DNA from: a virus
Strand: one strand, 5' to 3'
Length of the DNA stretch: 33,570 nucleotides
Virus record (IMG/VR): IMGVR_UViG_3300022916_000637
The number at the start of each line of letters is the position of its first letter. Position 1 is the stretch's first letter. The notes under the pieces are model-generated. The model searched no databases, was not told where the DNA came from, and saw only the letters and a list, made by a program, of their open reading frames with translations. Of this stretch, positions 3,959 through 33,535 are shown one piece after another. Position numbers and translations under genes: made by a program.

Positions 3959-4270
3959 ATGACTCCGAATGTTAAGTGCCCTAATTGTGGTAAAGTAGGA
4001 TGTGTACAAATATCAGGATTCGCTAGTGAATTGGCAACCAGAGAAAAGTACTGTAGGTTCTGTAATGAAAAATTTTATGTTCATATAATTACAGCTACTT
4101 CAAAAGAAAAAGAAATACGTGATGGTAAAGTTAGTGAACTTAAAGAAAAAATAATAAGATTGTCTAAGAAAAGAAAAAAGATTTATAAAGAATTATTTAT
4201 TATGTGTGAAGGAAATATGAGTCTTATAGAAAAAGCTTCGCGAATAATTGGATATGCACAAGGAGAATGA
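3959..4270 (+). CDS. Zn-ribbon protein
   Basis: CPNC ... CRFC pairs; ATG 3959 follows GGAGAGGAG (track start 3932). Confidence 0.7.
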   Translation: MTPNVKCPNCGKVGCVQISGFASELATREKYCRFCNEKFYVHIITATSKEKEIRDGKVSELKEKIIRLSKKRKKIYKELFIMCEGNMSLIEKASRIIGYAQGE

Positions 4271-4271
4271 T

Positions 4272-4652
4272 ATGGATTTTGAAAAAAATATGAATATTCT
4301 CAAAAAGAACATGTATATTAAAGATGATACAAATGAAAAAGATTTAATAATTCTTGCAATGCCGGATATGATATTGTATGGTTTTGTTCATGAAATAATA
4401 AGAGATCAAGCTGTAAAGACTGGTACTTGGTGGCATGTAACATTTACAATACTATCTGTACCTTTACTTACTACTACATTAATCATGAGAACAGAACAAA
4501 TGACTGGTCAAGAAACATTCACTGTTAATGGTGAAGATAGATTTTTTGCTGCTCTTGATACTGATAAATTACATCAAGAGAAAATACCTTTAAAAGAAAA
4601 ACCTAAAGCTAAAACTGTTAAAAAGAATCCATTTACTCTAGTTAAAAAATAA
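4272..4652 (+). CDS. Hypothetical protein
   Basis: Track ORF 4248-4652; ATG 4272 follows AGGAG at 4261-4265. Confidence 0.7.
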   Translation: MDFEKNMNILKKNMYIKDDTNEKDLIILAMPDMILYGFVHEIIRDQAVKTGTWWHVTFTILSVPLLTTTLIMRTEQMTGQETFTVNGEDRFFAALDTDKLHQEKIPLKEKPKAKTVKKNPFTLVKK

Positions 4653-4661
4653 GGAGAAATA

Positions 4662-4925
4662 ATGGAAAAATTAGCCAGTGCAATAAAATTGGCAGTAAAA
4701 TTAAGAGAAGACTCTTTTGATCATAAACTAGCGCAATCTAAAGGACCTGGTTATGATTTTAGTAAATGTTATAAACTAACATTAAGAGAAGCATCAGACA
4801 AGGCAGCTACATTTGTATCTGTTGGGTTTGATACTAAAGGAATAAATCCTATATATTTACTTCTTAGAAGTTATTTGAATGAATCTTTAGATTGGGCTGA
4901 TAAATTTGAAGAAGAAAAATCATGA
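4662..4925 (+). CDS. Hypothetical protein (87 aa)
   Basis: AAGGAG RBS; ORF track. Confidence 0.7.
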   Translation: MEKLASAIKLAVKLREDSFDHKLAQSKGPGYDFSKCYKLTLREASDKAATFVSVGFDTKGINPIYLLLRSYLNESLDWADKFEEEKS

Positions 4926-5232
4926 AATGTTTGAAAAAATCAGTTTTATTTTAGGAGAATTAAAAATGGAAGAAAGATTACCACATAATTTTATTACTAA
5001 TTACAAACAGTGGTTAGAATATCAAGAAATTGTGAAATTTGATAATGACGAATTTCATTTAGTTCAAGAGATTCTTTCCCTACAAATAGCTCTTTATCTA
5101 TTAAGAAGAACAAATATAGTTGATAGTTCTCATATAGATTGTTTTTATAAAATAATATTTGAAAAGAAAACAGAATATTCAAGAATAATGGAGAAAAACT
5201 ATATTGATGTTAATGAAACTATTGATTTTTAA
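4906..5232 (+). CDS. Hypothetical protein (true start possibly ATG 4927)
   Basis: ORF track; fills the gap in the + strand gene run. Confidence 0.6.
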   Translation: MKKKNHEMFEKISFILGELKMEERLPHNFITNYKQWLEYQEIVKFDNDEFHLVQEILSLQIALYLLRRTNIVDSSHIDCFYKIIFEKKTEYSRIMEKNYIDVNETIDF

Positions 5233-8497: not shown

Positions 8498-9296
8498 TAA
8501 ACATAAGAACTATGAAATATTATCTTTGCTAACATATTTTTATAATGATAAATATGTACTCAAAAATCTGTATTCTGGTTACACCGAAACTACTTTTCAA
8601 TTTGTAAAAATTAATAAAGAACAGCGACTTGTTCAACATGATGAGTTTGCAAGTGAACAATATTCAATCAAAGTTGATGTTTATGATTCTAATGATAATT
8701 TCTATTATAACAGTGATAATGCTGTATTAAAAACATGTTTACGATTTACATATGACCAAAAAGATATTTATTTACTGTATCAATATAATAGTAATATGGA
8801 TCTACATACTGCTAGTGTAAATTATGGTAGACCAAATTATTATAACGTAATTGAAGAAGGTTCAGATAAATTTATCAAAGCACAGAATCGAATGATTAAT
8901 CGATTCACATTCTTTGAACTGTATGCGGATAAAATTCTACCAAATATACGCATAAAAAATGATTTTAATACATTGTATAGATTTAAGAAGTATATTAAAA
9001 ACATAATTGATTATGATTCAACGAAAGGATACGACACTCTAAGGAGTATGTGTAGATTTGTTGAAGATGATATGAAATTAAATAAGTCATATGTTATGAA
9101 TAAATTCTTAACAATAAGAAAACCTAATCGAGAATCAATCAGTTTAAGTATTGCTAATCTTGTACATAAAACAATATCAATTAGTTTGCCAGATTTTAAT
9201 TCATTTTTTAATATATTTATTCCTGTATTCGATCAACTTGGTGGTGTAAAAGAATTGGAAAATATAGTTTTAAGACAACGACTTATGGAGGAATAA
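8466..9296 (+). CDS. Hypothetical protein (276 aa) between primase and topoisomerase A
   Basis: ORF track; GGGAG RBS; no motif recognised. Confidence 0.75.
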   Translation: MSQKSITLENNKHKNYEILSLLTYFYNDKYVLKNLYSGYTETTFQFVKINKEQRLVQHDEFASEQYSIKVDVYDSNDNFYYNSDNAVLKTCLRFTYDQKDIYLLYQYNSNMDLHTASVNYGRPNYYNVIEEGSDKFIKAQNRMINRFTFFELYADKILPNIRIKNDFNTLYRFKKYIKNIIDYDSTKGYDTLRSMCRFVEDDMKLNKSYVMNKFLTIRKPNRESISLSIANLVHKTISISLPDFNSFFNIFIPVFDQLGGVKELENIVLRQRLMEE

Positions 9297-11761: not shown

Positions 11762-12142
11762 TTGTCAAAATCTAAGAATAAAGCAAACAATCAACCAGAT
11801 AATTTTTGTGAATTTTGTAATGACAAAATTCCAAGAAATCTAACTAATTGGTGGCGACGAACAGCATGTGAAAAAGAAGAATGTCAAGAGAAAAAACGAT
11901 TAAAAATTTTAGAAAGATCTAGAAACTACCAAAGAAAAATACCATTTAAAGATGTTTTACGTAAATCACCAAAAGAAATTCTTGGTAAATTTAATGGTAG
12001 ACGTTGTGTTAAATGTAATAAAAAATTAAGAGAACCTTTTAGATTTCGATGTCCTACTTGTTTTGCATCAGTATCAAACGCATTTTATGATTTTGATAGT
12101 GTTGATAGTAGCAGACATAAATCATCACATTTATATGAGTAA
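11762..12142 (+). CDS. Basic Zn-finger protein
   Basis: CEFC, C-x4-C, CVKC and CPTC motifs; TTG start after AGGAG. Confidence 0.7.
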   Translation: MSKSKNKANNQPDNFCEFCNDKIPRNLTNWWRRTACEKEECQEKKRLKILERSRNYQRKIPFKDVLRKSPKEILGKFNGRRCVKCNKKLREPFRFRCPTCFASVSNAFYDFDSVDSSRHKSSHLYE

Positions 12143-12483: not shown

Positions 12484-15400
12484 ATGACTATTTTTAGAGC
12501 TTTCGGAAGACACATTGATAAAATTAAACCTGTAGATATAAAAATAGATCAAAATGAAGATTTTGAAATAATCACACAGAGGAACCAACAAAGAGAAGTT
12601 TTTGAAGAAAATCGAAATTCAAAATATTTTCAACTGATACAACCACCTGGATCAGGTAAATCTATTAATGTTGCTTTTGTTATGGCTGATAGATTGAAAA
12701 ATAATCCAAACATGAAAGTTGTTATAGCTGTACCTCAAACATTTATTGCAAAATCTTTTGGAAAAATGATTCTTCAATATGATGATGGTACACAAATTAA
12801 TTGGGATTGTTTTCATGATCTTTGCAAGAAATCTAACCTTCAAAAAATCAAATACTTAACTAAATTTCTTAAAAAGAAAGAATTTGAACCTGGTATTGAA
12901 AATCGTGTGGCTATTGTTACACATTCTACTTTAGCTCAAACATATTCAAAAGTATCAAAATTTAATGATATATTTGATAATACTACAATCGTAATTGATG
13001 AAGCTCATCATATAATGTATGAGGATAATGAAACATCAAATAGAATTGGAAGTATGGTCAATCATATTTTTAAAAATAAATCTGATAGTTCTCTTTGGTT
13101 AGTAACAGCTACACCATATCGTGGTGATAGTAATTCTATTATACCTAAAGAAATTCTAGATACATTTGATAAGCATTTTCTTCCTCTAGATAAACATTGG
13201 GAAGAAAATATTAAGTATATTGAAGATTTTACTTTTAATTTTGTTATATACAAACAATATGAAATATTTGATGAAGTTAAGAAAGTATTTAAATTAGGAC
13301 ACAAAAAGAGCATAATTTTCTGTCCTTATGTTGGTCATCTTATGAATGATAGTAATAAGAATAAATTTAAAGATAAACTTATTAAAACTATCAAAGAAGA
13401 GTGGCATGATTGTAAAATTCTTGATCTTATTGAAACCAACGGTAGAGATAAGAGAAAAGAAATACTCCTTGATAATAGAGATGCTAAACATGTTGATGTG
13501 ATACTAACTCTTAAAATATTTGATGAAGGATCAGATTGGGTTCATGCAGAACAATGTCTTGATTTAGCACCTTCAAATACTTTAAGAATAACACATCAAC
13601 GTTTCGGTAGATTGTGGAGAGATTTCTTTAATAAGAAATCAATAATATATTACTGTTTTCTTCCTTTTGAAAGTAAATTTAAAAACGAAGAAGAAAGGCG
13701 AATACATTTAAGTAAAAGTTTCAATGCTCTAGCAACATCTTTATTGTTACAAGACATTATTGAACCAATTAAATACCCAACAAAATTAAAATCAAATAAT
13801 AGAAGAGAGTTATATATTAATCCTCTAGAGGAAATATTTCCAGATGATGATGAAAGAGCAAAATTATTGGAGAACATAATTAAAAAACTAATAGTTATGA
13901 AATCTGTTTCAGAAGATCCATCTGCTCAAGATGTTAAACAATGGATCAAATGTTTATTAACATCAGAGAACATAATTAAAAATCAAGACCAAATCATTAA
14001 TCACATCGGTTTAGTTTTTAGAAAAATGCACAATCAAAAACATATTATTAAATCAATTGATTATTCTAAAAATAATTCAAATTATTTTATCGAAGATTTT
14101 GATAAAATTTGGTTGAATGACATCTTTGAAGATTTAAGAATTTTTGGAACTAATACATGTACATCAAAAACATTTCAAGAATTTAGAGATGTTATTAAGG
14201 GAGAAAGAAAATCTATAGAAGAATGGGTACAAATAGCTGAGAAATTAACTGAAGAAAATGGTGGAAAATTACCACCATCTAAATGGTTAAGAGAGAATGG
14301 GTATAATGGATTAGAAATTTGTTTGTATAAATATAAAAATTCATTTAAACATATTCTTAAAGAAAATTTATATAAAGAAAGAAATTCACCAGAGGATTGG
14401 GTTAAAATTGCAGAGAAGTTAGCTAAAGATAATGGTGGAAAATTACAATCATATATTTGGTTAAAAAGAAATGGTTATATGGGGTTAACTGCTCTCTTGT
14501 ATAGTAAACATAAGAAAATGTTTGATCATATTAAAAGAAAATATGATTCTATGCCTCCAGAAAAATGGCTTAAAATAGCCGAGAATCTAGTTAAAGACAA
14601 TGGTGGAAAATTGCCACCAGCTACATGGTTGATAGAAAATGGGTATTCAAATTTACTTTACCATTTAAACAAAAAATCATTTTCACATATTGATAGAGAT
14701 TTTATTAATGATCCGTGTAAATCTCTGGATGAATGGATCGAAATAGCCGAGAAGTTAGCTAAAGACAATGGTGGAAAATTACCACCAGTTAAATGGTTAA
14801 GAAAGAATGGGTACGGAAGATTAGTAAACCATCTTTGTATAAACAAAAAATCATTTTCACATATTGATAGAGATTTTATTAATGATCCGTGTAAATCTCT
14901 GGATGAATGGATCGAAATAGCCGAGAAGTTAGCTAAAGACAATGGTGGAAAATTACCATCACTTAGTTGGTTGAAAACAAATGGTTATCGTAAGTTATAT
15001 CAATGTATAATATCAAATAGAGATACATTTTCTCATATTAAAAGAAATGATAATAATCTTAAATCTCTGGATGAATGGATCGAAATAGCCGAGAAGTTAG
15101 CTAAAGACAATGGTGGAAAATTGCCACCAGCTAAATGGTTAAAAACAAATGGTTATAATACATTAATTCGTATTATATACGCAAATAAAAAATCATTCAA
15201 ACATATTAAAAGAGATTATTGTCACAAACCTTCAGATGAATGGATCGAAATAGCCGAGAAGTTAGCTAAAGACAATGGTGGAAAATTACCACCAGCTAAA
15301 TGGTTAAGAGAGAATGGACACAAAAGATTAGTAGTTTATCTTTCTTTAAACAAAAAATCATTTTCACATATTGATAGAGATTTTATGGTTAATCCTAGTA

Positions 15401-16299: not shown

Positions 16300-17032
16300 A
16301 GTGATATATGAACCAAAAGGTTCTGCTAAAGAATATGCAGATCTTGCGCTCAATCTTTATATAGGTTGTAATCATGGTTGTAAGTACTGCTTTGTCCCTG
16401 GTGTTTGTAAAATCACTAGAGAAAATTTTAACGGAACAATTAAACCAAAAAAGGATATTATTACGAGATTAATAAGAGACTTAGAATTGATTGAAAAGAA
16501 TGATGAATTCGAAAAATCTCAAGTTCTTATGTCATTCACTAGTGATCCTTATCAACCACTAGAGGAAGAACTAAAACTAACACGAACATCAATTAAATTA
16601 TTAAATTCGTTTGATTTTCCTGTTCGAATACTTACAAAAGGAGAAGATTTAGCTCAAAGAGATTTTGATCTTTTGTCTCAAGTTCAAGAAAACGAATTCG
16701 GTATTACTTTAGTTATGTTAAATGAAGATTTACAAAAAGAATGGGAACCATTTGCAGCTTCCCCCAAACAAAGGATTGAAAATCTAAGAAGAGCCAAAAA
16801 AAGAAACATTAAAACTTGGTTAAGTTTAGAGCCAATTATTGATCTTCAAGAAGCATTAGATGTTATCGATAATACTCATGAATTCACAGATTTTTATGGT
16901 GTTGGTAAATTGAATTATAACAAACACCAAAAAACAATAAACTGGAAAGAAGTCAAAGAGAAGGTTGAGAAAAAATTGAATCATTATGGTAAAAAGTATA
17001 TGATTCATAAATCATTAGAGGAGGCCCAATGA
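16289..17032 (+). CDS. Radical SAM protein (SplB/photolyase-like, Rv2578c-like branch)
   Basis: LNLYIGCNHGCKYC = CxxxCxxC; SF-x-SDPYQP, ILTK and SLEP elements typical of that branch. Confidence 0.85.
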   Translation: MPNRVIYEPKGSAKEYADLALNLYIGCNHGCKYCFVPGVCKITRENFNGTIKPKKDIITRLIRDLELIEKNDEFEKSQVLMSFTSDPYQPLEEELKLTRTSIKLLNSFDFPVRILTKGEDLAQRDFDLLSQVQENEFGITLVMLNEDLQKEWEPFAASPKQRIENLRRAKKRNIKTWLSLEPIIDLQEALDVIDNTHEFTDFYGVGKLNYNKHQKTINWKEVKEKVEKKLNHYGKKYMIHKSLEEAQ

Positions 17033-17241
17033 AAGAATTAGACATTGAAGAAAATGAAGAAAGCGAAATTAGAATTGGGGATTTTGTAATTAATTTATCT
17101 CTAACTCCTGAAAAGGATCTTATGGCATCTTTTGCTAGAAATCAAGATCCAAGTGAAGACAATCCAGATAGTCCAGAAAGTCCAAATGGTGCTTTTGAAG
17201 ATTTTGTGTTTTCAAGAAAAAATATTCATGATTACGAATAA
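17029..17241 (+). CDS. Small acidic protein (70 aa)
   Basis: GAGGAGG RBS; ATGA overlap with the radical SAM gene. Confidence 0.65.
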   Translation: MKELDIEENEESEIRIGDFVINLSLTPEKDLMASFARNQDPSEDNPDSPESPNGAFEDFVFSRKNIHDYE

Positions 17242-17253
17242 ATCATCACAAAG

Positions 17254-17313
17254 ACCCGGCTGCTTCGGCAGTCGGGTAATTTATATTTTCTCTGTTTTTA
17301 TATAGAAATAATA
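17254..17313 (+). promoter_or_regulatory. UUCG terminator hairpin + TATAGAAATAATA putative promoter, copy 3
   Basis: ACCCGGCTGC-TTCG-GCAGTCGGGT (17254-17277), then AATTTATATTTTCTCTGTTTTTA and TATAGAAATAATA (17301-17313). Confidence 0.75.
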
Positions 17314-17375
17314 TAAATAATCATTATTTTTAAATATAAATAGACAGGAGGCTTTTTAAATGGAGACAATGAATA

Positions 17376-17576
17376 ATGAAAAATGAATTTACTAAACACA
17401 AATATCGAGTAATTTGTAAATGTGGTCATGAACAGGTTAATGAAGATGATAGTGTAGTATTAAAATGTAAATTAGTTAAAACTAATTATTGCAAAACATG
17501 TGAATCACAATATACCGAAATACCTACACAAACACAAATATTTTTCACACATGATGGAAAAAGAATTTATTTATAA
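17376..17576 (+). CDS. Small Zn-ribbon-like protein
   Basis: CKCGH ... CKTC motifs. Confidence 0.6.
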   Translation: MKNEFTKHKYRVICKCGHEQVNEDDSVVLKCKLVKTNYCKTCESQYTEIPTQTQIFFTHDGKRIYL

Positions 17577-17614
17577 TAGTATCAAACATAAATCTAAAGG
17601 GTTAGGATATAATA

Positions 17615-17908
17615 ATGATTCTAAATAGTTTAATAATCATATTGATTGTTTTAAATATAATAGATCTAATCCAGACTAAAATAATATTCAATAACTATGG
17701 TACTGATGGTGAGTTCAATCCAATTGTTAATCTCATATATGTAAGATTAGGATTTTTTGGAATTATACTTTATAAAATTACATTAATTGGATTTGCTATA
17801 ACCATGTGTTACATGATTGAAAGTATTGGTATTACACTAATACTTATAGGAGTATATGTATTTACAGTTATCTATAACTGGAGAGTAGCTAGATTTAATG
17901 CTTGTTAA
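17615..17908 (+). CDS. Small multi-pass membrane protein (DUF5658-like)
   Basis: Three hydrophobic segments with D-x3-T ... E-x-NP ... K pattern recalled for DUF5658. Confidence 0.55.
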   Translation: MILNSLIIILIVLNIIDLIQTKIIFNNYGTDGEFNPIVNLIYVRLGFFGIILYKITLIGFAITMCYMIESIGITLILIGVYVFTVIYNWRVARFNAC

Positions 17909-23503: not shown

Positions 23504-25252
23504 ATGGTAAAACAACAAGATTATGTTGCCCTCGATAGCATTACTGCGGTTCGAACAAACCCAGGAATGTTTATTGGTGATACAGAAACTCCTGATCATT
23601 TAGCTGTTGAAGTAATTGATAATATGCTAGATGAAGTTGTTAATAAATTTGCTACAATCGGTGAAGTTTTTATTGACGAATCAAATGAGTTCTGGGTTAC
23701 TGATAATGGTAGAGGATTAAAAATTGGTATCACACAAGATCCAGATACAAAAGAGATGAAAGATAGTATTGAATTATTGTGTACCAAACTATTCTCTGGA
23801 TCTAAATTTCGACAAAAAAATATAGTAGATTATAAAATTCAGATTGGTATGCATGGTGTCGGCTTAGTAGCCGTTAATGCATTTTCTGAATGGTTAGTTG
23901 TTCGAATTAAGAAAGATAATAAAATACATGAATATATCTTCATTGATTCAGTCCCATCAGAACACAATATAACTGATTATGCTGGTGAAACGTTTTCAAC
24001 TCAAGTTGGATTTAAACCTGATCCAAAGTATTTCGACAGTGTTTCATTTAATATAGAGCAAGTCGTTAGTCGATTACTTTTATCTCAATCAGTACATGAT
24101 CATGCACAATTCTTTGTAAATGAAACAGAGATTCCAAAGATCACTTTATATGAATATGTTCGAAATGTATTGTCTATAAATGATGATATTCAAATGTATT
24201 CAATCGAAGAAGTATTTGGTGTTGAAAAATTAAGAATATACTTAACATATATCAATGCCAAAGATAGTATAATTGTGGGTGATGTTAATCTACGCACTAG
24301 TGATGGTACATATATTACAAACACTAGTACAATGATTAAAGATATCATCGCAAATAATATCGATCGCAGATTTAGAAGTCTTAATAATAAAGAATTTCTA
24401 ACCGGTCTTCGATGTTATATTAATCTTACTTTAGAGAAACCAAAGTTTGATGCACAAGTTAAATCACGAATGAAAACAAATATTAAACCATATCTTAAAA
24501 CTATTGAAAAAAGATTAACTAAAATTCTTACCAGCTCTGATATTATGAATACACTTACAGATTTATTAGAAACTAAAATAACCAAAAAAATTATATCTAG
24601 AGCTAGTAGTAAGAGAATATCAAACAAGAATAAATTAAGAGATTGTAGTAAATCACCAGGAGACATATTATATATCGTCGAAGGTGATTCTGCTGATGGT
24701 ACTCTTAAGGTTATTCGGAACAAATCCACAGAAGCTTCTTTTCCACTTAAAGGAAAGATGATGAATGTGGAAAAAGGTTCAGCAATCAAAATTGGTCAAA
24801 ATCAAGAGATTAAACAATTATTGGAGGCATTAGGCCCAGAAGGGAGGCGCAGGTATAAGAAAGTAAAGCTACTGAGTGACGCAGACTCGGACGGTCTTCA
24901 TATTAATCTATTAGCAACCCTCTTTATGAGTAAGTTTGCTAGTGATATGATAAAAGAAGATCGTGTAAGTATACTCCTACCGCCACTATACGGTGCGGTT
25001 AAAGGAAAAACTTTTGTACCATTATATGAGATAGAGGAAACCGAAAAGTATCGGGCCCAGAATTATGAAATCAAAAGGTTTAAAGGTCTTGGAGAAATGA
25101 ATCCAGACCAACTAGAGATTGTCATAAGAAAAGGTAGAGAATATGTAATCAAGTACCCAGATACGATGGATATTGTTAATACTGTCGTTAATAGTACCGA
25201 AACAAGAAAGCAATTAATGTTAACAGACCTAAGTCTAAAAAATTTAATGTAA
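23504..25252 (+). CDS. gyrB: Type IIA topoisomerase subunit B (GyrB/ParE-like), ATPase + TOPRIM
   Basis: GHKL motifs EVIDNMLDE, VTDNGRG, GMHGVG; TOPRIM IVEGDSA, PLKGK, DADSDGLHI, RFKGLGEM; ATG 23504 follows AGGAG (track start 23453). Confidence 0.9.
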   Translation: MVKQQDYVALDSITAVRTNPGMFIGDTETPDHLAVEVIDNMLDEVVNKFATIGEVFIDESNEFWVTDNGRGLKIGITQDPDTKEMKDSIELLCTKLFSGSKFRQKNIVDYKIQIGMHGVGLVAVNAFSEWLVVRIKKDNKIHEYIFIDSVPSEHNITDYAGETFSTQVGFKPDPKYFDSVSFNIEQVVSRLLLSQSVHDHAQFFVNETEIPKITLYEYVRNVLSINDDIQMYSIEEVFGVEKLRIYLTYINAKDSIIVGDVNLRTSDGTYITNTSTMIKDIIANNIDRRFRSLNNKEFLTGLRCYINLTLEKPKFDAQVKSRMKTNIKPYLKTIEKRLTKILTSSDIMNTLTDLLETKITKKIISRASSKRISNKNKLRDCSKSPGDILYIVEGDSADGTLKVIRNKSTEASFPLKGKMMNVEKGSAIKIGQNQEIKQLLEALGPEGRRRYKKVKLLSDADSDGLHINLLATLFMSKFASDMIKEDRVSILLPPLYGAVKGKTFVPLYEIEETEKYRAQNYEIKRFKGLGEMNPDQLEIVIRKGREYVIKYPDTMDIVNTVVNSTETRKQLMLTDLSLKNLM

Positions 25253-25278
25253 AGAGATTTTTAAAGGAGATTTAAATT

Positions 25279-25821
25279 ATGGCAATGGCAACCAGACCCT
25301 CATTTATGCCCAAAATTAAGCCCGTAGTCGAAGCAGCCCCCGCAGCCCCCGCAGAAGCAGCTCCTGTTGCAGCTCCCGTTGCAGCCCCAGCCGCTCCCGC
25401 AGTTGAAGCAGCTCCCGTTGCAGCCCCAGTGGCCGCTCCTGTTGCAGCTCCCGTAGTTGATGCTGTACCTGCTGCTCCGGTTGAAGTGAAGAAAGCACGA
25501 AAGAAACCAAACCGTCAGATGACTCCGGAAGATACGGAATTTGTTGTGGCAAATGTCAAGAATATGTCATATACGGAAATTGCCGAAGCTCGTGGTATTA
25601 CAAAACATCAGGTGAATCGTGTACTGATGGAAACAAAAAAACAGTTGAGAGAAGCATGTGGTGATGATGCTGCTAGTTTAGCAACTGTTGATGCTTATAT
25701 CACTGAACATCTATCTCGTCCCGAAGATACTCGTCCCGGTGGCGGTGCTGGACGAGCATCAGTTGTGAAGGCGTCAATCAATGATATCGTTGGTAATATC
25801 CTGAATGGTCTTGGTAGTTAA
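25279..25821 (+). CDS. Ala/Pro-repeat protein with a putative helix-turn-helix
   Basis: N-terminal (A)APV/APA repeats, then MTPEDTEFVV...MSYTEIAEARGITKHQVNRVL; AAGGAG RBS; followed by a terminator. Confidence 0.65.
   Translation: MAMATRPSFMPKIKPVVEAAPAAPAEAAPVAAPVAAPAAPAVEAAPVAAPVAAPVAAPVVDAVPAAPVEVKKARKKPNRQMTPEDTEFVVANVKNMSYTEIAEARGITKHQVNRVLMETKKQLREACGDDAASLATVDAYITEHLSRPEDTRPGGGAGRASVVKASINDIVGNILNGLGS
25333..25482 (+). repeat. Imperfect in-frame GC-rich tandem repeats (GCAGCTCCCGTT-like units)
   Basis: GCAGC(T/C)CC(C/T)G(T/C)N units encoding AAPV/AAPA; about two-thirds GC in an AT-rich window. Confidence 0.8.
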
Positions 25822-25834
25822 ACACACCGGTAAC

Positions 25835-25866
25835 AAATTGGGTGGCCAATTGTGGTCACTCAATTT
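25835..25866 (+). terminator. Intrinsic terminator-like hairpin
   Basis: AAATTGGGTGGCCA-ATTG-TGGTCACTCAATTT, 14-bp stem with two G-U pairs. Confidence 0.7.
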
Positions 25867-25904: not shown

Positions 25905-26210
25905 GTGAATCTTAACATAAACAAAGTAATTATAGTGGGTAAGTTAGATAAAGACCCAAATATAGGTGAGACAAATAATGGAAAAACAGTAGCTAACTTA
26001 CTAGTTGTCACTGATGAAAGTTATACAAATATAGAGAAGGTAAAAGTTGAAAAATATGAGAGACATAAAATAGTAGCTTGGGGAAGACAAGCCGAATTGT
26101 GTAAAAATTTCAAAAAAGGTGACAAAGTATATATTGAAGGTAAAAATCAAACACGAAGAACAGATTCTAGCATAGTCACAGAGATTGTAGCTACGTTAGT
26201 TCAAAAATAG
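25905..26210 (+). CDS. ssb: Single-stranded DNA-binding protein, OB fold only (no acidic tail)
   Basis: NKVIIVGKL-x-KDP, VAWGRQAE, KGDKVYIEGK-x-QTR match bacterial SSB; only 101 aa; GTG start after AAGGAG. Confidence 0.85.
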   Translation: MNLNINKVIIVGKLDKDPNIGETNNGKTVANLLVVTDESYTNIEKVKVEKYERHKIVAWGRQAELCKNFKKGDKVYIEGKNQTRRTDSSIVTEIVATLVQK

Positions 26211-26216
26211 TATTAT

Positions 26217-26250
26217 TTTGGCGACCTGTAAAAGGGTCGTCAAATATTTT
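26217..26250 (+). terminator. Intrinsic terminator after ssb
   Basis: TTTGGCGACC (26217-26226) and GGTCGTCAAA (26235-26244), then a T run. Confidence 0.7.
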
Positions 26251-26269
26251 TAAAATTAGGAGAGTTCGC

Positions 26270-26824
26270 ATGGGAAAAGTAACCGTCTATCAATGTGATT
26301 CATGTGGATCTAATTACAAAAAACCTTCAGATGTGATAAATGTTAACGGTGACATATATGATGGTGATGGAAATATAATATATAATGGTGTTGAAGATGA
26401 GATTACTTGTATAAAATGTTTTGTAGAGAAACTTGAATTAGACTTACAAGAAGCTGAAAGTAATCATAAGAGTAAACAAAATGTTAATATTATAGAAGAA
26501 GATCTAACACTCAAAAATCTAAATGATTGTATTCTTTTAAAGAAGATATGTGACGAAAAAGATGAATCTGATTTTATACATTTTATTGGTCATGTCTCTA
26601 GAGATAGTTTTGAGAAAATTTATAGTAGTAGTTTAATTAAAAGCTATTACCCAATTGATTTTGATAGTTATGAAGATCTTAAAATTGAATCTTTTGATAA
26701 AGAAAAATCTATAAGTGTGATAAATAAAGTATTTGCTAGTGTTCCACAAATAAAGCAATTAAGAGCTTTATTATATGATCAAGAGAATCTTGCCGTTATT
26801 AATAAAAAAATATTTGAAGAGTAA
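26270..26824 (+). CDS. Acidic protein with N-terminal Zn ribbon
   Basis: CDSC ... CIKC; AGGAG RBS. Confidence 0.7.
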   Translation: MGKVTVYQCDSCGSNYKKPSDVINVNGDIYDGDGNIIYNGVEDEITCIKCFVEKLELDLQEAESNHKSKQNVNIIEEDLTLKNLNDCILLKKICDEKDESDFIHFIGHVSRDSFEKIYSSSLIKSYYPIDFDSYEDLKIESFDKEKSISVINKVFASVPQIKQLRALLYDQENLAVINKKIFEE

Positions 26825-28387
26825 TTGATTATGGCTAAAGCTAAATCTAGAAAGAAAACTCAGAATGTTAAGAAGAAAAAGAAGAAAAATATAAATTTCT
26901 TAGAATCACTCAAGTCAATCACTAAATGGATCAATAACTCTAATCGTAATGAAGAACAATTGGTTGGGTTAATTGAAAAATATGATATTAAAAATACTGT
27001 TGCTAAAAGAATATTAAGTTACAATTATGGATTTCCCTATATAATAAAGTATTTTAATACATATATGAATGATCTCTATAAATTTGATAGTTACGATACC
27101 AGACTTTTAATTAAATCTTTAGTGTATATAATGGAGATCAATAACCGTTGTAATAGTAAGATGTACATGTATATTAAATCAGCTACATTAAAAGACGACA
27201 TTAAGTTCACCATAAAGAAACTCATACATGATTACCTCTTAACTGTCCACAACATTGAATGTAATAGGCTTGACCTGAATATATACTATAAATTATTTAA
27301 AATGGGTGTTATTAAGGACGAAGATCTTTTAGAAATAGATAGGTTGCTTAATGGAGACAAACCATCTATTAAATCCTTTGACTTTATTAACTATAACGAT
27401 GTTGTAAAACCACCGCAAGAGCTGGATGAAAACCAGTTAAAAACATTAGGAACGTCAGACAAAAAAGAATTTGGTCCAGAAATAAATAGTTTTATTAGTA
27501 ACATCAAAGAAGCAAAAGCAAGTAGTGATTTATGTAAAACATGTTCTTTATATGCAAAACCAACAGTTATATTAGATAGTAATCTAAAAGAACCAGGTGA
27601 AGTCGATGTATGTTTCGTTGGTTTGAATCCTGGAAAAGCAGATATTGAAAAGGGATTACCATTTATTGGAGATTTAAGTGTTCGAAATATAATTAACCAG
27701 TTACCTAGAAGTATAACATGGACACTCTTCAATATTATTCCTTGTGAATCTTCAAATAAGAATGAAATCACTGGTGATATTATTACCAAGTGTCTAAATA
27801 TAACTTCTAAAATCTTTTCAACCTTTCCAACAAAGCTATATGTACCAATTGGTGATGAGGTTAAATCAACATTTGGTATTAAAAATAAAATTACTGCCGC
27901 TTCTGGAAAAGTATTTTCTCTAGAGAATAATGTCACAGTGATACCATTAATAAGCCCTAGTTCAATTTCACACAATAGTAAGAATAAAGCGATTTATGAA
28001 AAGAGTGTGAAAAATATTATAAAGTATATTAATCCTAATCCAGATGTTAGTAATGCTAATGCTAATAAGTATACCAAACCAGACGGTAAGAAATCATCAA
28101 CCATCATAGATAAAAGTATGACGGTTAAAGATGATAAAGACTTATTACTATTAGATATAAAGAAACTTGAAAACAATCAATTATTAATGATCTACACAGA
28201 TCTTGCCGGTAATAAAAAATATTTAATTAAACCGTATATGTTTCCGGTTTTGATTAAGAATGAAGACTGGAGTGAATGTAATATGATAACAGATAATATA
28301 TCCGACTCGTGTCAGTTAACTGATTGGGAGAAGATAAATGTGTCCAAGAAGTGTAATCAACTTCTAAAACAACTAGTGAGTATTTAG
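26825..28387 (+). CDS. Multidomain protein with central family-4 uracil-DNA-glycosylase-like domain
   Basis: CKTCSLY, CFVGLNPGKADIEKGLPFIG, FNIIPC...C, VPIG, IPLISPS align with UDG-F4 C-x2-C, GE(A/G)PG...G-x-PFVG, N-x3-C and HP motifs; likely start ATG 26831. Confidence 0.65.
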   Translation: MIMAKAKSRKKTQNVKKKKKKNINFLESLKSITKWINNSNRNEEQLVGLIEKYDIKNTVAKRILSYNYGFPYIIKYFNTYMNDLYKFDSYDTRLLIKSLVYIMEINNRCNSKMYMYIKSATLKDDIKFTIKKLIHDYLLTVHNIECNRLDLNIYYKLFKMGVIKDEDLLEIDRLLNGDKPSIKSFDFINYNDVVKPPQELDENQLKTLGTSDKKEFGPEINSFISNIKEAKASSDLCKTCSLYAKPTVILDSNLKEPGEVDVCFVGLNPGKADIEKGLPFIGDLSVRNIINQLPRSITWTLFNIIPCESSNKNEITGDIITKCLNITSKIFSTFPTKLYVPIGDEVKSTFGIKNKITAASGKVFSLENNVTVIPLISPSSISHNSKNKAIYEKSVKNIIKYINPNPDVSNANANKYTKPDGKKSSTIIDKSMTVKDDKDLLLLDIKKLENNQLLMIYTDLAGNKKYLIKPYMFPVLIKNEDWSECNMITDNISDSCQLTDWEKINVSKKCNQLLKQLVSI

Positions 28388-28389
28388 CT

Positions 28390-29724
28390 GTGTGGACATT
28401 TATTAAGAAAGAATCTTATGATGATTTTATAAATCAATACCAGATGTTAGGAGACTTTGCAGAAGAACTTATATTACTAGAGACTGATGATGCTTATTTC
28501 TTACCAAGACTTTTTGCAAAAAATTATCCTAATAAGCATTTACAAATATTTAGTGGTAATCAAGATCAATTTCAACCAGCAGAGATTAAAAATATTGAAT
28601 TCACAGGTAAATTGAGAGATGAACAAGTAAGTATAATAAATATTTTAGCTAAATCATATAACGCTAATGATTGTCTGAATGGAATTGTCAAAGCAAGACC
28701 TGGAATTGGCAAAACAGTTATGGCTATATATTTAGCAGCCCAACTTAAAATTAAAACATTGATTATTGTAGATAATCAAAATCTTATGAAACAATGGATC
28801 CAAGCCATACTCGACTTCACAAATTTTAGTACTAAAGATATTGGTATAATTCAAAAGAAAGCTTTTGGAGTAGACAAAGATATTATTATTGGTATGGCTC
28901 AGACTTTACTTCGAAAAGTGAAATCAAATATACAAGAAAATTTTAAAATAATTGATAAAGCTAAAATAGGTCTAGTAATTTATGATGAAGTTCATGCTAC
29001 TAGTTCAGCTCCGGTTTTCTCAAAGGTGTCGTTATTGTTTAGAACAAAAAATATAGTTGGACTATCAGCTACACCATTTCAAACTGGATTTGCAGAAATA
29101 CTGATGAAAAATTCAGTTGGTGAAATAATTTCAGATTCAAAAAATTATGATACTAAACCTGAATACCGCTTGATCAATTACAAGAGTGAATTAGATAATA
29201 AGAAAATATATGTAATGAATCAAATGAATGATTATCTTAGAAAGAAATCGTTCTATAATAAAGTTATTGTTAGTAGCCCTAATTATCTAAATATAATTGT
29301 TAATCAAGCACGTAAGATGGTAACTGAAGGTCATAGAATTATGATCTTGTGTTTCACAAAAATTCAAGTAACTACAATATCTGAATTGTTGACTGAGCGT
29401 GGAATAGAAAATACAATGTTCTATGGTGATCAACGTGAAATTACTTACAAAGAAAAAGTGCTTGTGGCGACATATTCTTATGCTGGGAAGGGCTTTGATT
29501 ACAAAGAATTAAGCTGTTTAATTTTAGCTTGTCCTTTAGCTGGAAAAAAGTCATTGATACAAGTTGTAGGTCGAATTTTACGTAGAGATTTAAACAAATT
29601 AAATCCAGTTGTAATAGATCTTGCCGATCTTTCAGTGCCAGGTTTTACTGTTCCGGAAATAAGAATGAAGCGTAAAGTAATTTCAGATGAATTCTCATGT
29701 AAAATTATTGATGAATATCTTTAG
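28390..29724 (+). CDS. SF2 helicase (UvsW / XPB-Ssl2-like)
   Basis: ARPGIGKT, YDEVH, GLSATP, YAGKGFD, QVVGRILR. Confidence 0.88.
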   Translation: MWTFIKKESYDDFINQYQMLGDFAEELILLETDDAYFLPRLFAKNYPNKHLQIFSGNQDQFQPAEIKNIEFTGKLRDEQVSIINILAKSYNANDCLNGIVKARPGIGKTVMAIYLAAQLKIKTLIIVDNQNLMKQWIQAILDFTNFSTKDIGIIQKKAFGVDKDIIIGMAQTLLRKVKSNIQENFKIIDKAKIGLVIYDEVHATSSAPVFSKVSLLFRTKNIVGLSATPFQTGFAEILMKNSVGEIISDSKNYDTKPEYRLINYKSELDNKKIYVMNQMNDYLRKKSFYNKVIVSSPNYLNIIVNQARKMVTEGHRIMILCFTKIQVTTISELLTERGIENTMFYGDQREITYKEKVLVATYSYAGKGFDYKELSCLILACPLAGKKSLIQVVGRILRRDLNKLNPVVIDLADLSVPGFTVPEIRMKRKVISDEFSCKIIDEYL

Positions 29725-29729
29725 AATTT

Positions 29730-29960
29730 TCTTGGTAGTAGCATGATGAAATCGTAGACATGCCATTAGGTTACAGCACCGGTGATGGTGGTTGAGCTAG
29801 AGTTTAGTCCACTTCGGTTAGAGACCTTCTGCACCAGGACCACGCAAGGCACACATACAGCGTGAATGGTTAAGCACCAGTAGCTGAGGGGTGAGAGCTC
29901 TGTTGAAAGCTATTAAGCAGAAAAATACCACTAGTGGGAGTAACGTCCCGCCTACCAAGA
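29730..29960 (+). ncRNA. Candidate structured non-coding RNA or cis-regulatory RNA (~230 nt), family not recognised
   Basis: 112/230 G+C counted (~49%) against an AT-rich background; no ORF on the + strand; ends pair (TCTTGGTAG 29730-38 / CTACCAAGA 29952-60); several internal stems; followed by a terminator. Confidence 0.7.
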
Positions 29961-29965
29961 TTTAT

Positions 29966-30005
29966 AAATTACTGGTGAGCATATACCAAGTCACCAGTAA
30001 TTTTT
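29966..30005 (+). terminator. Intrinsic terminator
   Basis: Perfect 13-bp inverted repeat AAATTACTGGTGA / TCACCAGTAATTT running into a T tract. Confidence 0.8.
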
Positions 30006-30053
30006 AACAGGAGACACAGATTAAATGTACAAAATAATTAGTGAAATTAAATT

Positions 30054-30626
30054 ATGAAAGATTATAGAATTACAGTAAAAATCAAAAATAATTATATGTT
30101 AAAAGCAATGGAGAAAGCTGGATTTTATAGTGGTGCAAGTCTTTCAAAAGCATCAAATGTTGGTCAAACACCAATAAGTTATTTTTTAAATTTAAAAAAA
30201 CCAGCTTATAATCTAGATGGTACTTTTAAAAAAGATGTATTAAAAATATCTAAGACTTTAAAAGTTTTACCAGAAGATCTGTTTCCACCACAACATTTAA
30301 TAAATCCTTTAGAAATTAATAAAGCAGAAGTTGAAGCAGATTTTGAAGAGATAAAACAAATTACTTCATCACAAAAGACACCATACGATCAAATTGTATT
30401 AGAAGAAAATTGTAAATTAGTGAATGATGTTGTCTCACGTTTAACAAAAGTAGAACAAGATGTTATTAATCGACGATTTGGATTAAATGATGAAGATAAG
30501 TGTACACTTAATGAAATTAGTAGGGATTATGAATGTAGCAGACAACGAATACAACAAATAAAAAATCGCGCTTTACAAAAACTTAAAGAAGAAGATGAAC
30601 TTAGATCTAGTTATGAAACGCAATAA
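30054..30626 (+). CDS. XRE-like HTH fused to a sigma-70 region-4-like domain
   Basis: C-terminus LTKVEQDVINRRFGL...TLNEISRDYECSRQRIQQIKNRALQKLK matches RpoD region 4; N-terminus SLSKASNVGQTPISYFLN...L-x-V-x-PEDLF is XRE-like; no region 2. Confidence 0.7.
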   Translation: MKDYRITVKIKNNYMLKAMEKAGFYSGASLSKASNVGQTPISYFLNLKKPAYNLDGTFKKDVLKISKTLKVLPEDLFPPQHLINPLEINKAEVEADFEEIKQITSSQKTPYDQIVLEENCKLVNDVVSRLTKVEQDVINRRFGLNDEDKCTLNEISRDYECSRQRIQQIKNRALQKLKEEDELRSSYETQ

Positions 30627-30635
30627 GGAATTAAA

Positions 30636-32561
30636 ATGGAACCTTCTTTAACACAAAAAAATGCAATTGAATATTTAGATGGTCCTTGCATAATATCTGC
30701 CGGTGCGGGAAGTGGTAAAACATTTACACTAATAAATAAGTTTATGTATCTTGTAAATAAAGGCTATAATCCAGAAAGAATATTATGTTTTACTTTTACA
30801 AATAAAGCAGCTACAGAACTTAAAGAAAGAATTATTAAATTTAGTAATGTTAACTGGTGGGATATTAAATGGGTTCGTACTATACATTCCGCTTGTCTTC
30901 AAATGTTAAAACCATATGTACATAAAATAAATTATTTAGAAAATGTTTCTATTTATTCTGCTTCCGAACAAAGAAAAATAATTAGAGAAATTTTAATAGG
31001 TCATAAATTAAATGCTAAAAAGTTTACAATGCCTTTATCTAAATTAATTTCAGACGCTAAAGATAATACAGATCCTCATGAATATATAAATAAAGTAAGA
31101 CTTAAAAAATACGAAATCATACAACAAGAACTTTTACCAATCTTTCAACATGATCGTGAAATATTAATTGATATATTTAATCAATATCGTTATGTTTTAA
31201 AAAGAAATAACGCTATTGATTATGATGACATCTTATTTTATACACTTCATTTATTAATTACTGATGAAGAATTTAAAAATGAATATAAAAACTATTTTCA
31301 ATATATTCTAGTTGATGAATTTCAAGATATTAATAACACTCAATACCAAATTATTATAAATTTAACTGATTGTTGTAAAAATCTAACCATAGTTGGGGAT
31401 GATTTCCAATCTATTTTTGGATGGCGCGGCGCTAAACCAGAATTTTTTATAGATGCTAAAGATAAAATCGAAGACTCTAAATTATTTAAATTAGAAGAAA
31501 ATTATAGATCTTCAACTAATATAGTTAACATGTCTAATGATATTATTAAGAAAAACACAAATCAAATTCCAAAAGTTTGTTATTCTAATATTATATCAGA
31601 TATTAAACCTATTATAATTAAATTTAAAAATGATGAACTTGAAGCCGATAATATTGCAAAAATTTGCTTATATTATGTTGATCAAATTAAATGTACATTT
31701 GATGATATCGCTATACTATATCGAGCTAAATTTATATCTAGAGCAATCGAAAAAGCATTAACGAATTTAGGAATACCTTATACCATTATAGGATCAGTTG
31801 CTTTCTTTGAAAGACGAGAAATTAAAGATATAATGGCTTATATTAAATTTGCATTTAACATTAATGATACAGAAGCTTTTGCTAGATCAATCAATGTTCC
31901 TAAACGTGGTATTGGAAAAGGTACAATACAAAAAATTTTAAATCAAACTGGTGATAATGTTATACGAAAAATTAAAAACTTTACATATAGTACAAAAATC
32001 AATTCTCGAATTTATCAAAACATATCTAAATATTATAAAATCATATTAAGTATAATTGATAACAATCCATCAGATAGTATAAATCTAATTTTAAAAGAAA
32101 TTAATTTTGATGATGAATTAAGATCAATGTCTGTAGATGATGAAGATTATGTAGATCGTAAAGAAAATATTAATGAATTACTTAAATTTGCTAGTAAATT
32201 TCAAACTATATCAGATTTTATAAATGAAAGTTCATTAATGACATCAGAAGATCAAAACAATAATGTTGAAAAAGTCAAACTAATGACAGTTCATTCGGCA
32301 AAAGGTTTAGAGTTTAAAATAGTGTTTATTATTGGATTAGAAGATGGATTATTCCCTCACTGGAAATCATTAAAGTCTGATTGTGAATTAAAAACAACAA
32401 AACATCTTGAAGAAGAAAGAAGATTATTCTATGTTGCGACAACACGCAGTAAAGAAATATTAAATATGACAACGGTTGAGAAAAGAACTTGTAGTTTTAG
32501 TGGGAAAAGAAGTAGATTTTTAAATGAAATCAATAGTCACTGTAAAATTTTGAGTGTATAG
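30636..32561 (+). CDS. uvrD: UvrD/PcrA/Rep SF1 DNA helicase
   Basis: SAGAGSGKT, TFTNKAA, VDEFQD, VGDDFQSIFGWRGA, LEENYRS, MTVHSAKGLEF, EERRLFYVATTR; ends without the PcrA/UvrD C-terminal extension. Confidence 0.93.
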   Translation: MEPSLTQKNAIEYLDGPCIISAGAGSGKTFTLINKFMYLVNKGYNPERILCFTFTNKAATELKERIIKFSNVNWWDIKWVRTIHSACLQMLKPYVHKINYLENVSIYSASEQRKIIREILIGHKLNAKKFTMPLSKLISDAKDNTDPHEYINKVRLKKYEIIQQELLPIFQHDREILIDIFNQYRYVLKRNNAIDYDDILFYTLHLLITDEEFKNEYKNYFQYILVDEFQDINNTQYQIIINLTDCCKNLTIVGDDFQSIFGWRGAKPEFFIDAKDKIEDSKLFKLEENYRSSTNIVNMSNDIIKKNTNQIPKVCYSNIISDIKPIIIKFKNDELEADNIAKICLYYVDQIKCTFDDIAILYRAKFISRAIEKALTNLGIPYTIIGSVAFFERREIKDIMAYIKFAFNINDTEAFARSINVPKRGIGKGTIQKILNQTGDNVIRKIKNFTYSTKINSRIYQNISKYYKIILSIIDNNPSDSINLILKEINFDDELRSMSVDDEDYVDRKENINELLKFASKFQTISDFINESSLMTSEDQNNNVEKVKLMTVHSAKGLEFKIVFIIGLEDGLFPHWKSLKSDCELKTTKHLEEERRLFYVATTRSKEILNMTTVEKRTCSFSGKRSRFLNEINSHCKILSV

Positions 32562-32695
32562 ATTTTACATAATTGTGTTAAGTACTTAACGGAGCATAAT
32601 GGAAAAATCAATTGAAGAACTTCGAAAAGAATACGAAGCAAAAAGAAGAGAGTATGGTGATCCAGGTAATCTAAAAATCAAAGGATTTATACCTC

Positions 32696-32932
32696 TTGAT
32701 AAAGGAGAAAATTATGAATGTAACACATCATTTGAGAATATATGCAAGAGACCATGATAATTCAAATATTGAATGTTTATGTGATAGAGTTTCTGGTATT
32801 TTAATTATTTCAAGTATTCTTCATCATAAACTAGAAGAAAGATACTTTGTTGAATTTAGAGATCTTCTTAATCAACAAGATGAAAAACTTAAAGGTTATA
32901 CAAGAGACGGATCTTGTTATTATACAAAATAA
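32696..32932 (+). CDS. Hypothetical protein (likely start ATG 32714)
   Basis: ORF track; AAGGAG at ~32702-32707. Confidence 0.55.
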   Translation: MIKEKIMNVTHHLRIYARDHDNSNIECLCDRVSGILIISSILHHKLEERYFVEFRDLLNQQDEKLKGYTRDGSCYYTK

Positions 32933-32942
32933 AGGTAATATT

Positions 32943-33335
32943 ATGCAAATACAAGACGAAGTTATTGAATTTTGTCCCGAAGTTCAAGGAAATTGTATTG
33001 GACCCGAATGTGCTGCATTTTCTAACAGAATGAAAATGCTATCAAATGTGACACCACTATTACATAAATTAAATTCTAATTTTGATATTGAAGAACCAAT
33101 CCCTTTAGTAATATATATAAATGCTTATCATTGCCAGAAGTATCATAAATTTCTAGATTATGAATCAATGAGTATTGTTGAACATTTAAATCTAGAGTTT
33201 GAAGAAGAAATTGAAACTAAATCTAAAGAACTAGGAGAAACTGATGAAAAAAGCACATGCGATTCCTGTAGTAGGAACAATAGAAAAGAGACAACTGTCA
33301 AAACTAAAAAGAAAAAGAGGACTGATGTATCTTAA
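32943..33335 (+). CDS. Hypothetical Cys-containing protein
   Basis: Track ORF 32847-33335; ATG 32943 avoids overlap with the previous gene; FCP-x5-C-x4-C motif. Confidence 0.65.
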   Translation: MQIQDEVIEFCPEVQGNCIGPECAAFSNRMKMLSNVTPLLHKLNSNFDIEEPIPLVIYINAYHCQKYHKFLDYESMSIVEHLNLEFEEEIETKSKELGETDEKSTCDSCSRNNRKETTVKTKKKKRTDVS

Positions 33336-33459
33336 GAGTAAAGACATTGATCCTGTAAAAAATTGTCAAAAGAATGATCCACTATTTCATGTTAAAGGTA
33401 TTGAAAGACATTTAAAGCTAAATACTAAAAAGCGCCCAAAATTTAATTGGGAAAAGTAG
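33325..33459 (+). CDS. Small hypothetical protein (44 aa)
   Basis: Internal ATG of track ORF 33244-33459, overlapping the previous stop. Confidence 0.35.
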   Translation: MYLKSKDIDPVKNCQKNDPLFHVKGIERHLKLNTKKRPKFNWEK

Positions 33460-33471
33460 GTCAAATCAAGA

Positions 33472-33535
33472 TACTCCAGTTACAATTATGTAGCTGGAGT
33501 AATTTTATTTTCTCTATTTTTATATAGAAATAATA
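33472..33535 (+). promoter_or_regulatory. Terminator hairpin + TATAGAAATAATA putative promoter, copy 5
   Basis: TACTCCAGTTACA-ATTA-TGTAGCTGGAGTA (33472-33501), then ATTTTATTTTCTCTATTTTTA and TATAGAAATAATA (33523-33535). Confidence 0.75.

Follow-up and report, generated by a model that had tools for sequence, protein, structure and literature searches.

Between the gene of an SF2 helicase and that of a sigma-like regulator, the uncultured marine phage studied here carries a short stretch of DNA whose composition differs strongly from the rest of its sequence. Does this stretch act in cis on the genes that follow it, or does it encode an RNA of its own? The original prediction had left both possibilities side by side, describing the element as an unrecognised structured RNA that would be either an attenuator, with an antiterminator for the following terminator, or a free-standing RNA mimicking tRNA. 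Here, we examine this locus within the window, that is, the whole stretch of 33,570 nt that was analysed. We propose that it is probably, with sizeable room for doubt, the gene for a stable, highly accumulating, processed and terminator-ended phage small RNA.

A GC-rich non-coding island behind the helicase gene

The island (29725-30005) is non-coding with a GC content of about 50%, as compared to 28.7% on average for the phage window. In 100-nt windows, the GC fraction is 0.47-0.53 over 29750-29950 and 0.18-0.36 in the surroundings. Upstream, the helicase ORF, with its ResIII, DEAD and Helicase_C domains, ends at 29724; downstream, a 190-aa protein with a sigma-70 region-4 domain starts at 30054 and is followed by UvrD, so that 329 nt separate the two neighbours. 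The claim of a GC-rich non-coding island right behind the helicase stop is thus borne out, and the motif GCACC(A/G)G is present, as had been noted, in three copies (29776, 29831 and 29874). No ORF of more than 47 codons runs through the island in any frame, which rules out a coding fragment. The island has a single copy in the window, where a search for its antisense targets returned chance-level 10-11-mers only.

The features considered in the following sections are listed here, on the strand that we favour.

29725..30007, +, whole unit, non-coding RNA island and terminator (from the joint 30005 to 29725 in run X15, with a 2-nt ambiguity, the ORF scan and the GC profile)
29730..29738, +, 5′ strand of P1, exact 9-bp pairing with 29952-29960 (pair probability about 1.0)
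29741..29763, +, predicted hairpin GCAUG/CAUGC with a 13-nt loop (pair probability 0.95), resembling the D-arm of a class II tRNA, without GG
29746..29930, +, core seen as separate 182-185-nt contigs in two RNA libraries of two studies (depth about 390-406)
29764..29933, +, central domain of 170 nt with two near-isoenergetic predicted folds
29841..29864, +, predicted hairpin CACGC/GCGUG, loop of 14 nt, common to both folds (pair probability 0.95)
29879..29914, +, variable hairpin with a UAGCU/AGCUA core, containing all four changes of the X16 strain
29934..29951, +, predicted hairpin GUGGGA/UCCCGC with the loop GUAACG (pair probability 0.99), abutting P1 at the place of a T-arm
29952..29960, +, 3′ strand of P1, pairing with 29730-29738
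29962..30007, +, predicted intrinsic terminator with a 13-17-bp stem, a 12-nt loop and UUUUU (MFE and centroid structures, inverted-pair search)
30009..30057, +, AGGAG (30009-13) and a 10-codon mini-ORF (30025-30057), read from the sequence, 4 nt past the terminator

Elsewhere in the window, stretches with at least 45% GC are confined to 24821-25861. The principal stretches (25251-25861) are coding and correspond to an Ala/Pro-rich ORF, a short one at 24821-24941 being the exception. This 180-aa ORF (25279-25821) reaches 70% GC in a genome of 28.7% GC; in its product, which has no Pfam match, a helix-rich C-terminal part comes after a long repeat of Ala and Pro (AAPVAAPV...). In the relatives, an ORF of similar size stands at the same place, after the Toprim gene.

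A predicted fold with firm ends and an ambiguous middle

The 281-nt unit including the terminator has a predicted minimum free energy (MFE) of -88.4 kcal/mol and a folding z-score of -3.5. From P1 end to P1 end (29730-29960, 231 nt) the z-score is -2.15, and the core alone (29746-29930, 185 nt) folds no better than shuffled sequence (z = +0.5). Altogether, the thermodynamic support for a structured island is moderate. Four helices are predicted robustly, with pair probabilities of 0.94-1.0: P1 and the hairpins at 29741-63, 29841-64 and 29934-51, the last of which includes one G.U pair in its stem (29934-39/29946-51). The pairings listed in the original prediction were all recovered at their positions, namely the exact 9-bp pairing of the ends (29730-38/29952-60) and the internal stems GCATG/CATGC, TTCTGC/GCAGAA, CACGC/GCGTG, TAGCT/AGCTA and GTGGGA/TCCCGC.

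The fold of the middle part is only half settled, as two very different structures are predicted within 1 kcal/mol of each other. The central domain may form either a long rod, which is the MFE structure, or two arms (29768-29827 and 29828-29921), at -71.7 and -71.0 kcal/mol, respectively. The two-arm fold contains the TTCTGC/GCAGAA and TAGCT/AGCTA helices. It is also the MFE structure predicted for the X16 variant and the consensus structure obtained from the three strain sequences; moreover, the strain change 29886 G>A disrupts a C-G pair of the rod.

No known RNA family and a topological likeness to tRNA

Searching the whole window with cmscan against Rfam 15 (4,227 families) gave no match at the gathering score. 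At E<=10, three chance-level matches only were returned on 29650-30080, one to a snoRNA model and two to microRNA models, and both of the latter fall on the terminator hairpin. Curated aptamer, riboswitch and T-box models of Rfam (gathering score and E<=10) had no match, nor did ribozyme models at the island (E<=10). ARAGORN detected no tRNA or tmRNA in the window in its default, intron, tmRNA and lowered-threshold modes, and the RF00005 tRNA model and the tmRNA models had no match at E<=10. The statement that the island belongs to no recognised RNA family, for which cmscan and ARAGORN had been put forward as a check, therefore holds.

The order of the predicted helices is nevertheless cloverleaf-like: P1 is followed, after 2 nt (UA), by the D-like hairpin, then by two arms and by a hairpin abutting the 3′ strand of P1. 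Furthermore, the D-like loop GAAAUCGUAGAC resembles GGAAUCGGCAGAC in the tRNA-Leu of a related phage, L006. Could the island be a decayed tRNA relic, for instance a class II tRNA with a grossly expanded middle, which would still be processed and stable with no function of its own? Besides helix order and the D-like loop, the presence of tRNA genes in relatives would be consistent with such an origin. Yet, ARAGORN reported nothing with or without introns and the Rfam tRNA model was silent. When 4,200 in-silico deletions of the middle were submitted to ARAGORN, no tRNA was found at the 95% threshold, and detections at 85% and 75% were no more frequent than among 4,200 random control pieces of the window. 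The loops (UACAGC and GUAACG, 6 nt each, and AUGAAAUCGUAGA, which has no GG) provide neither a 7-nt anticodon loop nor the T-loop UUCRANY nor the GG of a D-loop. We thus consider a tRNA relic very unlikely. Of the earlier D-arm and T-arm comparison, the helix order and the likeness to a D-arm stand, but every tRNA test failed.

The identity of the island as a tRNA or tmRNA is rejected by ARAGORN, RF00005, the deletion scan and the loop sequences. Like tRNA, tmRNA and tRNA-like RNAs, the predicted fold has its two ends paired in a terminal stem, from which a spacer of 2 nt leads to a D-like hairpin, and another hairpin adjoins the 3′ strand of this stem. It is set apart from tRNA and tmRNA by the absence of a T-loop, of GG in the D-loop, of an anticodon loop, of a tag frame and of CCA; the predicted resemblance is topological only. 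The island is an unclassified RNA, neither a tRNA, a tmRNA nor a known riboswitch. As for the relative L006, three tRNAs are recorded in it, Asn-GTT, Leu-TAA and Ile-TAT (coordinates given: 2043-2117 and 8670-8878).

Deep island contigs in seawater RNA libraries

The stretch was found in 20 public runs, 6 of them RNA runs and the other 14 DNA runs, which stem from 13 studies; on the DNA side, the phage is widespread. Four seawater metatranscriptomes (X15, X16, X17 and X18) were compared over 26000-33500, two further RNA runs with about one fifth of the sampled words (X19 and X20) being left out. The runs were chosen for containing the stretch, and the evidence consists of assembled contigs, each with one depth, without strand and without true read ends.

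In X17, a 185-nt contig covers 29746-29930 with 100% identity at a k-mer depth of 406 (record 20), and in X18 a 182-nt contig covers 29746-29927, also with 100% identity, at 386.6 (record 28). In X15, a contig with a depth of 592.8 corresponds to 29915-30005 joined to 29725-29860, limits that were derived from the bin depths and that reproduce them exactly; in X17 and X18, the bin depths are wholly explained by the island contigs. The remaining phage contigs of these three runs, each from a different study, have depths of 2-30, as compared to 387-593 for the island contigs, these being strandless contig k-mer depths, which sum over organisms and are a poor measure of abundance. Against such an excess, X16 contains a strain variant with helicase and island on a single 2,003-nt contig of depth 35. 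Contig cover downstream of the island is near zero in the RNA runs, and several kb of the 7.5-kb stretch, for instance 31522-32023, are without cover in any of the four runs, which makes a uniform carry-over of DNA unlikely. In X15, X17 and X18, the island RNA thus appears far more abundant than both flanking genes, which points to a stable, accumulating RNA and not only to a leader.

The X17 and X18 contigs, which come from two studies, share the start base 29746. This is a weak hint of a real end, and a mature core of 185 nt may exist; alternatively, the ends at 29746 and 29927/30 may result from clipping of short variable ends by the assembler. In these two runs, neither strand of P1 is covered, nor are the T-like hairpin and the terminator, which conflicts with a simple terminator-protected species unless such clipping took place. 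Uncovered parts (29667-29724, and 29931-30005 in X17 and X18) were not counted as evidence of absence. On the helicase side, one contig of X17 (record 19) and one of X15 (record 7, from a strain variant) have the same end at 29666, 58 nt before the helicase stop, and 29667-29724 is uncovered in X15, X17 and X18.

Given the nature of these depths, one may ask whether the island has any dedicated function. It could be a foreign GC-rich fragment that happens to lie before a terminator, its abundance being an artefact of contig depth or due to an identical sequence in another organism. The summing of contig depth over organisms leaves room for such an explanation, as do the unremarkable z-score of the core and the status of the island as an orphan sequence without covariation. 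Against it, the 182-185-nt contigs are 100% identical across runs of different years and studies, the X15 contig includes phage-specific flanks, and none of the 185,579 species genomes of GTDB contains either of two exact island words (19 and 22 nt). In addition, no open frame suggests a gene fragment, and the unit ends, the strong P1 and the terminator fit a defined unit. A functionless fragment therefore appears quite unlikely.

Unit ends and a head-to-tail joint

The X15 contig passes directly from 30005 to 29725, with a 2-nt ambiguity and zero extra letters. This joint delimits a 281-nt unit that extends from the first bases after the helicase stop to the end of the U-tract. Of the three placements of the joint that this ambiguity allows, one puts the 5′ end at 29726, after GA and before AUU. 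RNase E cleaves preferentially at RN|WUU, and the sequence UAG A|AUUUU at 29725/26 fits this preference.

The joint could originate from a circular RNA, from DNA copies in tandem in some of the genomes or from a library chimera. If it is genuine, the island might be a 281-nt mobile or amplifiable cassette or a true circular RNA, the joint then reflecting an excised circle, tandem copies or the ligation of RNA ends in the cell. The exactness of the joint in so deep a contig is in line with this explanation, as is the nature of the island as an insertion relative to all relatives. Independent assemblies also break at the 3′ edge of the island: L009 ends at 29992, L083 starts at about 30020 and the X16 contig ends at 29948. 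Moreover, a related phage, L006, encodes an RtcB RNA ligase (16593-17780). However, a single run shows the joint, and at so high a contig depth very few chimeric reads would suffice to close the k-mer graph. The joined form is absent from the JGI metagenome contigs, although this carries no information, since these contigs do not contain the island either. In the window, no ribozyme model matches at the island, no bulge-helix-bulge motif is present and the Pfam domains of ORFs of at least 80 aa include no transposase, RNA ligase or RtcB. A signature of a miniature inverted-repeat element is lacking as well, as there is a 9-bp inverted repeat only, with no convincing duplication, a single copy and none in relatives. 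A cassette or a circle is therefore improbable in our opinion.

Terminator, promoters and the genes behind the island

The predicted terminator (29962-30007) starts 2-6 nt after the end of P1. It was missed by a consensus terminator scan because the loop limit of that scan is 8 nt. Several observations favour the + strand for the island transcript. This strand carries every gene and, behind the hairpin, the U-tract; G.U pairs occur within the helices; and the predicted MFE is lower on + than on the minus strand (-88.4 vs -81.9).

We searched for the promoter from which the island could be transcribed. The phage has a nearly invariant terminator-promoter unit of about 36 nt, aatttatattttctctgtttttaTATAGAAATAATA, found in the window at 3662, 12423, 17301, 23409 and 33523, in most cases immediately after a GC hairpin. 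The core of this unit is also present in relatives (L084, L087, L005 and L006) at only about 50% helicase identity; in L006 it precedes the genes for tRNA-Asn and tRNA-Leu as well as a non-coding island. It has the appearance of a phage promoter shared across the lineage. Ahead of the island, this promoter unit (TATAGAAATAATA and its T-rich block) is missing. A sigma-70-type scan found no site just upstream of the island (near 29700); a TTGACT-17-TACAAT site lies 310 nt upstream, within the helicase gene. With no promoter of its own found, co-transcription with the upstream genes followed by processing is the most economical reading.

Downstream, the mini-ORF encodes MYKIISEIKL, and its TGA overlaps the ATG of the sigma-like gene (30054), giving ATGA. 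The arrangement suggests translational coupling of the two frames. The sigma-70 region-4 gene has no SD of its own. Since there is no room for a promoter behind the terminator, the mini-ORF and the sigma-like gene would have to be reached by read-through; the sole promoter-like site there (30011-30038, 9/12 matches) would yield an almost leaderless mRNA.

This organisation brings back the possibility of a cis-acting attenuator or riboswitch, in which the island would sense either translation of the end of the helicase gene or the presence of a ligand or a protein and set the terminator, hence the expression of the mini-ORF, the sigma-like gene and uvrD. The terminator lies where an attenuator would have it, between the island and the sigma-like gene, in close succession to P1. 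Then, 4 nt past it, come the SD and the mini-ORF, coupled to the sigma-like gene through ATGA and in need of read-through. The near-zero cover downstream in the RNA contigs and the poor promoter-like site also agree with attenuation. In addition, two complementarities could operate a switch: the 8-nt segment CACCAGTA at 29875-82 is complementary to 29970-77 in the 5′ arm of the terminator, so that CACCAGUA could pair with this arm as the original prediction had proposed, and CUUGGUA (29731-37) could form 7 bp with the terminator loop.

The complementarity of the 8-nt antiterminator is real, but it is no better than chance, since the same 500 nt contain several other exact inverted pairs of 8-9 nt, equal or longer, without meaning. 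The 7-nt pairing with the loop is likewise at chance level for the region. The candidate antiterminator also lies 87 nt upstream, inside the closed fold, and, judging from the sequence, we consider it unsupported. Further evidence against attenuation comes from the Rfam search, with no aptamer or T-box match, from the abundant species of X17 and X18, which have no terminator, and from the relatives described below, in which the element does not travel with the sigma-like gene. An attenuator is thus unlikely, and a free-standing RNA is preferred to it because the island contigs exceed both neighbours in depth, relatives lack the island, no aptamer matches and the antiterminator is at chance level. 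Separately, the last helicase codons (29701-29714, AAAATTATTGATGA) resemble the 5′ arm of the terminator (29965-29978, TAAATTACTGGTGA) and could also pair with its 3′ arm, probably by chance in AT-rich sequence.

A lineage-specific insertion

The helicase has hundreds of relatives. Among them, four related IMG/VR records measure 62-315 kb, three of them being jumbo-sized (106-315 kb); the two phage genomes in this set have 285 and 315 kb. At 85% helicase identity, the closest relative has its sigma-like gene 85 nt behind the helicase and lacks the island; in relatives at 75% and 69% helicase identity, the downstream region is AT-rich and different. Altogether, the island is absent from the fetched contigs with helicase relatives (58-85% identity) and from the region upstream of the fetched sigma-like homologues (55-61% identity). 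As these relatives carry the sigma-like gene without the island, the gene can do without the element.

Broader searches were equally negative. No island match was found by blastn in 50,697 phage records, and no exact or part-degenerate island words were found in IMG/VR. An 18-mer searched in the JGI metagenome contigs gave 68 matches, all 18-21 nt long and thus attributable to chance. Covariance model R1, nhmmer and a DNA search found no copy in the four related phage records and 13 loci. The collection of homologues from metagenomes, which had been proposed earlier for a covariation analysis, therefore returned none beyond strain variants in IMG/VR, JGI, GTDB and related phages. By comparison with these sequences, the island is lineage-specific, an insertion relative to all fetched relatives.

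The strain variants provide a limited view of structural constraint. In the L009 strain, 29950 G>A converts a U.G pair of the T-like hairpin into U-A, and the X16 strain has changes at 29886, 29907 (a deletion), 29908 and 29914, all in one distal hairpin, with 29908 A>G converting U-A into U.G. The pair-preserving changes are two in number and both one-sided (29950 and 29908), which is compatible with the structure and does not amount to covariation.

Unusual elements were also observed in the relatives. L006 has a non-coding island of its own, about 320 nt long (14340-14660) and GC-rich (up to 57%), which differs from the present one. The TATAGAAAT promoter core stands directly upstream of it, and an ORF of 31 codons, provided with a strong SD, lies downstream; the predicted MFE of this island has a z-score of -3.6, and it has no Rfam match. 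It was rejected as a homologue, as it has only the 10-mer GTGGGAGTAA in common with the island and aligns poorly. In L010, an HNH_3 endonuclease ORF splits the helicase into pieces of 116 and 342 aa (2656-5029), which suggests an intron or another homing insertion. In L007, a unit of about 60 nt, AGTTATAGTTATAATCTTCCTC.ACCTACTAAAGTAGGTGG.ATCCAGATTACGGA, occurs twice (11990-12050 and 12670-12730), each time before a short GC-rich ORF; this region, with up to 68% GC in a phage of 28% GC, looks like foreign cassettes.

Discussion

In this study, we describe a non-coding GC island that belongs to no known family, is present in one lineage, has definable unit ends and is covered by deeper RNA contigs than its neighbours. 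These observations underlie our proposal of a phage small RNA gene. Of the original prediction, the structured and unrecognised RNA stands, with the free-standing form fitting better; tRNA mimicry failed its tests and the antiterminator is at chance level.

We can propose the following course for the expression of this RNA. The island sits in the 3′ UTR of the SF2 helicase without a phage-type promoter, and it would most likely be transcribed with the upstream genes, on the + strand. The transcript would be ended by the intrinsic terminator (29962-30007) and most likely cleaved just after the helicase stop, where the site at 29725/26 matches the preference of RNase E. Its fold, compact and rich in GC, with P1 closing it and hairpins flanking it, would then protect the RNA, which may outlast the mRNA by one to two orders of magnitude; the shorter 185-nt core (29746-29930) may be its final form. 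Such an RNA would most likely act in trans on a protein or RNA target. A leaky terminator would in turn feed the mini-ORF and the sigma-like and UvrD genes.

The closest known systems would be functional analogues and not relatives. The T4 RNAs RNAC and RNAD lie in a tRNA gene region and are matured by tRNA-processing enzymes. Like the proposed island RNA, to which we liken them by these traits and not by sequence, they are phage-encoded, small, stable, abundant and non-coding. The island RNA differs by being larger, by its location outside a tRNA cluster, in a helicase 3′ UTR, and by its own terminator. RNAC and RNAD (species 1 and 2) have been described as 'RNAs of yet unknown functions' (PMC9697503).

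The genomic position of the island is reminiscent of another group. As with 3′-UTR-derived small RNAs, it lies directly behind a stop codon, shares the intrinsic terminator of the mRNA, has an AU-rich stretch before this terminator and has a 5′ end that maps to GA|AUU just after the stop. In Bacteria, small RNAs of this type, such as CpxQ and SroC, are released by RNase E. While they are usually 50-100 nt long and poorly structured besides the terminator, the island is predicted to adopt a GC-rich multi-helix fold of 230 nt. Like terminating riboswitches and T-box leaders, it is a P1-closed element immediately upstream of an intrinsic terminator that precedes genes; unlike them, it has no known aptamer or convincing antiterminator, is absent from relatives and appears to accumulate as its own RNA. 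Finally, GOLLD and ROOL, which are associated with phages, and IMES-1 to IMES-4, which are abundant in marine RNA libraries, are structured non-coding RNAs of unknown function. All are Rfam families, none of which matches the island at E<=10, and GOLLD and ROOL are two to three times longer.

A bolder proposal would combine the topology of the fold with the joint. The island might represent a new class of DNA-encoded, tRNA-shaped, non-decoding RNA, whose 281-nt unit, with its terminator, would be closed covalently head to tail into a circle in infected cells and would become highly abundant; it could serve for instance as a nuclease-resistant decoy or sponge for a host factor directed at tRNA or RNA. 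We regard this as a long shot, and the processed small RNA as the reading to be preferred.

Very few non-coding RNAs are known from large uncultured marine phages. If raw reads confirm its abundance, the island RNA would be a tangible and plentiful object on which to study the role of phage small RNAs at sea. In view of the head-to-tail joint, it is also possible, and open to testing, that the phage makes a circular RNA. The lack of relatives among the searched sequences suggests that the island was acquired recently, and its source, if found, would be informative.
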